Assembly (NCBI RefSeq): GCF_002854065.1 | Contig: NZ_CP024147.1 | DNA from: Escherichia coli | GTDB lineage: Bacteria > Pseudomonadota > Gammaproteobacteria > Enterobacterales > Enterobacteriaceae | Strand: one strand, 5' to 3' | DNA: 64,000 nt | In this document: positions 16,465 to 16,599 of the stretch, piece after piece | How the letters are laid out: each line of letters opens with the position of its first letter | How positions within the stretch are numbered: the stretch's first letter is position 1 | Program-made: the position numbers and the translations under genes | Notes under the pieces: model-generated | What the model saw: only the letters and a program-made list of their open reading frames with translations | Database searches by the model: none | What the model was told of the DNA's origin: nothing

Positions 16465-16599
16465 TTATCTCCTGACGCCTGGGCAAAAAAAAGCCCCTCG
16501 ATTGAGGGGCTGGGAATGGGTGATCAACGGGAAGAAAAACGGCAGGCCAGCGTCTTTTTTCAGACGCGGTAAGACAAAATGTCGAACACACTGAACCAT
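16465..16599 (-). CDS. pyrL: pyrBI operon leader peptide
   Basis: 44-codon ORF (MVQCVRHFVLPRLKKDAGLPFFFPLITHSQPLNRGAFFCPGVRR) overlapping the attenuator hairpin. Confidence 0.8.
   Translation of the reverse strand: MVQCVRHFVLPRLKKDAGLPFFFPLITHSQPLNRGAFFCPGVRR
16484..16510 (-). terminator. pyrBI attenuator (intrinsic terminator hairpin plus U-run)
   Basis: On the minus strand: GCCCCTCAATCGAGGGGC followed by a run of T, just upstream of pyrB. Confidence 0.8.

Follow-up and report, generated by a model that had tools for sequence, protein, structure and literature searches.

The element at 16465–16599 is almost certainly the pyrL-pyrBI leader of E. coli, through which pyrBI expression would be set by UTP via attenuation and reiterative transcription. 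It lies in a 64,000-nucleotide (64-kb) stretch of E. coli DNA, which is called the window here. The element is already known, and its copy in the window is wild-type and ordinary: the strain has a normal control region for aspartate transcarbamoylase. It offers a textbook example of control 'without a repressor': UTP is sensed by RNA polymerase itself, and the role of antiterminator falls to the ribosome. A sequence-only reading of the same DNA had named the region the classical pyrBI leader and attenuator, and every sequence feature of that system is present in unaltered form. The elements described below, their identity with those of K-12, their conservation and their covariation all come from the present analysis.

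The 44-codon leader ORF that had been reported at 16465–16599 was borne out by translation. The sequence-only reading gave no strand; the feature belongs to the minus strand, where the frame (16599..16465) reads from an ATG through 44 codons to a TAA (16465–16467) and yields the product MVQCVRHFVLPRLKKDAGLPFFFPLITHSQPLNRGAFFCPGVRR. This peptide matched the Pfam family PF08052 ('PyrBI operon leader peptide') over residues 1–44 of 44 with 117.1 bits (cut-off 25), and the NCBIfam equivalog NF007587 ('pyr operon leader peptide') over its full length with 120.1 bits (cut-off 61). Taken together with the RefSeq annotation of the frame as pyrL and its identity in K-12, these scores argue that the leader ORF is more than a chance open frame. 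Its start codon is preceded, at a distance of 4 nt, by the Shine-Dalgarno (SD) sequence GGGAGG (16604..16609, minus strand), and a spacing of 4–5 nt recurs in all 83 leaders classified in the wider comparison described below.

The placement upstream of pyrBI was likewise confirmed. pyrL lies directly upstream of pyrB and pyrI on the same strand, and both were found as ORFs and identified by protein family models and by RefSeq: pyrB, the regulated gene, encodes the catalytic subunit of aspartate carbamoyltransferase (15526..16461, minus strand; TIGR00670, 420 bits), and pyrI the regulatory subunit (15052..15513, minus strand; TIGR00240, 243 bits). The gene order, mgtL/mgtA, ridA, pyrI, pyrB, pyrL, yjgH, bdcA, bdcR, is the standard E. 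coli arrangement. The pyrL stop falls 3 nt ahead of the pyrB ATG at 16461, and the pyrB SD sequence AGGAG (16469..16473, minus strand) lies inside the 3′ end of pyrL, with the pyrL TAA sitting between it and the pyrB ATG.

A second minus-strand ORF of 49 codons (16454–16603) overlaps this region. Its ATG abuts the pyrL SD sequence with no spacer, and it crosses the terminator hairpin in another frame to end inside pyrB. Because the SD spacing is zero, translation of this ORF seems unlikely. The same frame is also open in several Citrobacter loci.

The sequence-only reading had also described a GC-rich hairpin overlapped by the leader ORF and followed by a U-run, and both parts of that description stand. 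A terminator scan and folding place the attenuator, an intrinsic terminator, at 16485..16511 on the minus strand, where AGCCCCUC-AAUC-GAGGGGCU (16511–16492) is followed by U8 (16492–16485). The GC-rich hairpin, GCCCCTCAATCGAGGGGC at 16510..16493, had been given in the right sense for the minus, coding strand; a flanking A-U pair extends it to a stem of 8 bp around a loop of 4 nt (16511..16492). Fold prediction, which had been proposed as a check, gave this hairpin a minimum free energy (MFE) of −15.4 kcal/mol (z −4.25), a value that none of 200 dinucleotide shuffles equalled, with the U8 undisrupted. In the DNA, the run is eight T (16492..16485) and ends 23 nt before the pyrB ATG. The pyrL ORF spans the entire hairpin and T-run, and its stop comes 17 nt past the T-run.

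A further hairpin was found upstream of the terminator. This structure, CCGCGUCU-GAAAAA-AGACGC(U)GG (16547..16569, minus strand), folds at −10.5 kcal/mol (z −5.39), which none of 200 shuffles matched, and on the strength of the literature we take it to be a putative transcription pause hairpin. Between the two hairpins lies a U- and pyrimidine-rich tract, as read from the sequence (CCUGCCGUUUUUCUUCCCGUUG..., including UUUUUCUUCCC; 16512..16546, minus strand), which, going by published work, would be where RNA polymerase pauses in a UTP-sensitive manner. The leader measures 156 nt, counted from AATTTG to the pyrB ATG. The MFE fold of the 85 nt from the upstream hairpin to the U8 contained the two hairpins and no other structure, while that of the full leader from AATTTG added pairings, including one of the SD region with the U-rich tract.

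We looked for an antiterminator by folding the transcript stopped before the 3′ arm of the terminator, and in this fold the 5′ arm was unpaired, with a pairing probability of at most 0.18. When the terminator was forbidden in the fold, the 5′ arm found no alternative partner. The leader is thus predicted to operate without an antiterminator RNA and, since the 5′ arm is unpaired before the 3′ arm is made, relief of termination must come from outside the RNA. A rival reading is that a protein binds the leader RNA, as PyrR does in the pyr operon of Bacillus, where termination in a leader serves the same purpose of pyrimidine control of pyr genes. Against such a protein-mediated attenuator, the leader lacks the antiterminator/anti-antiterminator architecture of the PyrR type, and the PyrR binding-site family gave no Rfam match at E values up to 1 in 14000..19000 and none at gathering threshold in the whole window. 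Minus-strand matches at the leader to other cis-regulatory families were likewise absent from the permissive scan. E. coli is not known to possess a PyrR regulator, and we consider a PyrR-like mechanism exceedingly improbable.

The same Rfam scans (permissive over 14000..19000, gathering threshold over the whole window) returned no family for the pyrL leader itself. This lack of a match in Rfam 15 appears to be a gap in curation and not a sign of novelty. Weak plus-strand matches to Chlorobi-1 and Hrs1 at 16486–16557 were far below gathering and were rejected as the terminator read on the wrong strand.

Upstream of pyrL, the sequence contains a −10 hexamer, TATAAT (16625..16630, minus strand), identical in K-12, followed after 7 nt by AATTTG at 16617–16612 (minus strand), also identical to K-12, which holds the putative transcription start and the T3 tract (16615–16613). 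This agrees with the initially transcribed region of pyrBI, AATTTG, as quoted in PMC7039003 and PMC6524683. The hexamer TTGCAC (16647..16652, minus strand), 16 nt upstream of TATAAT, would be the −35 element. K-12 has TTGCGC at this position, and this G-to-A change is the sole difference in promoter and leader, with a few more substitutions further upstream. The exact 54-nt promoter allele with TTGCAC occurs in 1889 of 5426 E. coli genomes, O157:H7 among them. Across Enterobacterales, CTTG is kept at the −35 position. Of the 84 distinct leaders listed, only two lack a conserved GTATAAT, and in both the pattern had picked the wrong site; 87 of 119 loci contain A[A/G]TTTGC. The pyrBI promoter went unreported in a scan for consensus promoters, since only 3 of the 6 positions in its −35 hexamer agree with the consensus.

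That scan gave a single plus-strand match, at 16670–16699. A minor upstream promoter, P1, known from the literature, was also sought and could not be placed from sequence alone.

The sequence-only reading had called the leader intact. When aligned with E. coli K-12 MG1655 (locus L002), the window agreed at each position, starting at the −10 box and continuing past the pyrB start, and the transcribed leader shows no difference at all. The peptide, the gene order, both hairpins, the U8, and the SD sequence and start codon of pyrB are all those of the K-12 pyrL/pyrBI attenuator (b4246). A 501-nt query around pyrL matched 5424 of 5426 complete E. coli genomes, with pyrL annotated beside pyrB, and the 179-nt transcribed leader was at least 99% identical in 5416 of the 5426. 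In E. coli, the DNA upstream of the pyrL promoter (16640–16900) varies much more than the leader does.

To extend the comparison beyond the species, we searched species-representative genomes with a degenerate DNA probe directed at the N-terminus of PyrB, which yielded 120 loci, almost all of them from Enterobacterales. A terminator was defined as a perfect stem of at least 5 bp with a loop of 3–8 nt and at least six T, upstream of pyrB. By this rule, 116 of the 120 loci have a terminator upstream of pyrB, mostly at a distance of 18–60 nt and at most 187 nt. The four others comprise a chance archaeal match, a short locus with about 150 nt upstream, and two loci with decayed T-runs or stems, one of them from a candidate symbiont. 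The archaeal match (L044, an Altiarchaeota MAG) arose by chance from the degenerate pyrB probe and was ignored as a pyrB locus. The terminators share the core GCCCCU(C/U)...(G/A)AGGGGC followed by T8 or T9; many species have U-A in place of the apical C-G pair, and GCUCC/GGAGC double changes are rare.

Leaders with a placeable AATTTG start and an SD-proximal ATG, 83 in all, were classified by where the leader ORF ends. The end falls inside the hairpin in 52 leaders, past the T-run in 29, and within 15 nt before the hairpin in 2; in none of the 83 does the ORF stop further upstream. An end that always lies at, near or past the hairpin is what occlusion by a ribosome requires.

These data also bear on a more trivial interpretation, in which the hairpin and U-run are the plain terminator of yjgH (16880..17275), which lies upstream on the same strand, and the small ORF is fortuitous. 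A terminator scan seeks only a generic hairpin followed by a T-run. However, the hairpin lies about 370 nt past the yjgH stop, with a TATAAT promoter, an SD sequence and an ATG in between, and it adjoins pyrB in the 116 loci described above. Moreover, about 600 of the 5424 matching E. coli genomes have lost homology upstream of ~16700 and carry a different neighbour gene, yet retain pyrL. The match of the ORF to curated pyrL models, and a leader ORF end that always reaches the hairpin, likewise speak against a yjgH terminator. This reading, which we would credit with only a very slight chance, is effectively refuted. In some of the genomes that have lost the upstream homology, an 'arginine repressor' gene replaces yjgH as the neighbour (E. 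coli matches H18–H20).

Returning to the pyrL attenuator, we asked how its other parts fare across Enterobacterales. The upstream hairpin was predicted in all 78 distinct leaders, usually 22–53 nt before the terminator. Its stem varies by lineage, taking the forms GCGUCU/AGACGC, GCGCCU/AGGGCG, CGUCGUCU/AGACGACG, CGCCUG/CAGGCG and CUGCC/GGCAG. In 76 of the 78 leaders there is a T-rich window (at least six T in 12 nt), mostly 17–27 nt before the terminator.

In the window, the U-rich tract encodes three consecutive phenylalanine codons (UUU UUC UUC) shortly before the terminator, and these might be read as the regulatory codons of a sensor of the pheL or trpL type, in which a ribosome stalling at Phe-Phe-Phe reports phenylalanine and switches alternative hairpins. 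Such a device needs a fold that competes with the terminator, and the leader offers no antiterminator of this kind. Nor do the codons themselves behave as regulatory codons: Phe-Phe-Phe is kept in only 30 of 78 leaders, and the frame of the longest T-run is 0 in 54 leaders, 1 in 12 and 2 in 12, with T-richness kept in nearly all of them as noted above. In addition, the operon product is a pyrimidine enzyme and its published regulation is by UTP (PMC5021804, PMC7818426). A phenylalanine sensor therefore has, in our judgement, hardly any likelihood. Since T-richness is kept while the frame and the Phe codons vary, the constraint lies on U residues in the RNA and not on Phe codons, a pattern that polymerase pausing predicts. 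As a minor practical use, the comparative set separates constraint at the level of nucleotides, in the U-tract, from constraint at the level of codons.

We then examined covariation in the leader RNA. An alignment by MAFFT analysed with RNAalifold (105 leaders) recovered only four terminator pairs, because loops of unequal length split the 5′ arm between two registers; it was replaced by stem-anchored counts and an alignment to a covariance model built from the leaders. In the covariance-model alignment, 12 of 16 pairs had changed on both sides (113 cells), including all seven pairs of the upstream helix. None of 500 shuffles reached any of five covariation measures, and the structure stood clearly above slid controls; the alignment was fitted to the model and so favours the structure, a concern that is lessened by the slid controls and by model-free per-sequence counts, which agree. 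The covariance model inherited the split register, so that in the terminator helix 82% of cells are paired, though every sequence has a perfect stem of 7–10 bp. Simple as it is, the model found exactly one match in each of 100 sources (100 of 100 Enterobacterales species, one leader per locus), including the single one in the 64-kb window, which gives it a minor practical use.

Since the transcribed sequence is identical to that of K-12, the published UTP control should apply to the leader in the window. For UTP dependence, pausing and ribosome occlusion, we draw on that literature. Two studies are central here, both cited through later articles. Roland, Liu & Turnbough 1988 (via PMC5021804, PMC4824070 and PMC7818426) describe pausing in the U-rich leader at low UTP, which keeps the pyrL ribosome coupled and blocks the terminator hairpin, and, at high UTP, ribosome lag and termination. 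Liu, Heath & Turnbough 1994 (via PMC7039003 and PMC6524683) describe how, at high UTP, the AATTTG start leads to released AAUUUn transcripts and to productive initiation that is about 7-fold lower.

Applied to the window, transcription would start at AATTTG, with ribosomes loading onto pyrL. When UTP is low, RNA polymerase would linger in the U-rich tract past the upstream hairpin, allowing the pyrL ribosome to catch up; with the ribosome on or beside the emerging 5′ arm of the terminator, the GC hairpin would be blocked and the polymerase would continue into pyrB and pyrI. At high UTP, the polymerase would not wait, the ribosome would lag, the hairpin and U8 would form, and transcription would terminate about 130 nt from the start. 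Attenuation would in this way operate without an antiterminator RNA. High UTP would also act at the start site itself, where the nascent AAUUU may slip on the T3 tract and be released as AAUUUn transcripts, leaving less productive initiation.

This arrangement resembles other attenuators in part. At the E. coli pyrE attenuator (rph-pyrE), intrinsic termination ahead of a pyr gene is likewise decided, without an antiterminator, by pausing that responds to UTP and by coupling to a ribosome (PMC7818426). The coupled ribosome there, however, is completing translation of rph, the gene upstream, and not of a dedicated leader peptide. Reiterative transcription is not known to take part. The trpL, pheL and hisL attenuators are alike in having a short leader ORF before an intrinsic terminator, with coupling of translation to transcription deciding readthrough. 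They differ in sensing charged tRNA through codons with a regulatory role and in alternating between terminator and antiterminator hairpins, whereas pyrL has no predicted antiterminator and its conserved signal is a U-tract, not codons.

Also among the closest known systems are leaders of the Salmonella/Citrobacter type (L060, L070, L031), in which pyrL has 33–34 codons. These share the promoter, the AATTTG region, the upstream hairpin, the U-tract and the terminator, together with the N-terminal peptide MVQCVRH..LPRLKKDAGLPFFFPL. Their stop codon falls within the loop of the terminator, some 12 nt from where the stem begins, whereas the E. coli stop is 17 nt past the T-run. To judge by these sequences, E. 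coli pyrL differs from the Salmonella/Citrobacter form only in the position of the leader stop.

With the stop of E. coli-type pyrL placed between the pyrB SD sequence and AUG, it is conceivable, if rather unlikely, that ribosomes finishing pyrL also set pyrB translation, be it by coupling, re-initiation or occlusion of the SD sequence. If this were true, E. coli would possess a second, translational layer of control that is absent from loop-stop (Salmonella-type) leaders, and the 29 read-through and 52 loop-stop leaders would represent two functional designs and not neutral drift.

A few of the loci compared depart from the common arrangement. In three Yersinia loci (L003, L014, L028), attenuator and pyrB are separated by an inserted repeat of some 125 nt (...CCCCAGGAGCTTAC...GCAGCTTGAAGTATGACGGG), which widens the spacing to 127–187 nt and leaves the terminator untouched. 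We take this repeat to resemble the ERIC/IRU element. The attenuators of L078 (Serratia symbiotica), L026 (Ca. Pantoea persica) and L107 look decayed, with a T-run that is T6 or interrupted or with a damaged 3′ arm; a pyrL-like leader ORF was sought in L078 and not found. That at least two of the decayed attenuators come from symbiont or candidate lineages hints at a possible relaxation of selection on pyrimidine control.

Elsewhere in the window, at 40360–56403, an integrase-bearing island lies just after the tRNA-Leu(CAA) gene leuX (40360–40444). Among its genes are those of a type I restriction-modification system (hsdR, M and S, 42230–48778), of an AAA ATPase and of a DpnII/MboI-like PD-(D/E)XK nuclease (51676–52848, minus strand), with an argonaute/piwi-family gene adjoining the last. 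Among 5426 complete E. coli genomes, NZ_CP178662.1 alone contains at least 80% of 40300–64000, and the leuX island is a rare defence island. The argonaute gene is a single 743-aa CDS in NZ_CP178662.1. In the window, it is represented by two minus-strand ORFs (52836–53315, 159 aa, and 54334–56403, 689 aa), between which lies a plus-strand ORF of 301 aa (53595–54500) with rve/rve_3/HTH_21 transposase domains. Because one CDS in NZ_CP178662.1 corresponds here to two ORFs flanking a transposase ORF, the argonaute gene has probably been disrupted by an IS element.

The window also holds a second well-known leader-peptide/attenuation system, mgtL, which together with an Mg2+ riboswitch (Rfam Magnesium-II, 126 bits) lies upstream of mgtA at 11482–11597. 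REP-type repeats (Rfam naRNA4) were found at 1354–1431, 28146–28221, 28242–28317 and 14441–14477, three of them above the gathering score and one a partial copy between mgtA and ridA. Finally, a strong match to the 'antisense' family Ysr276 (181 bits, 29151–29345) falls within a 503-aa minus-strand ORF at 28392–29903, which is probably pepA.
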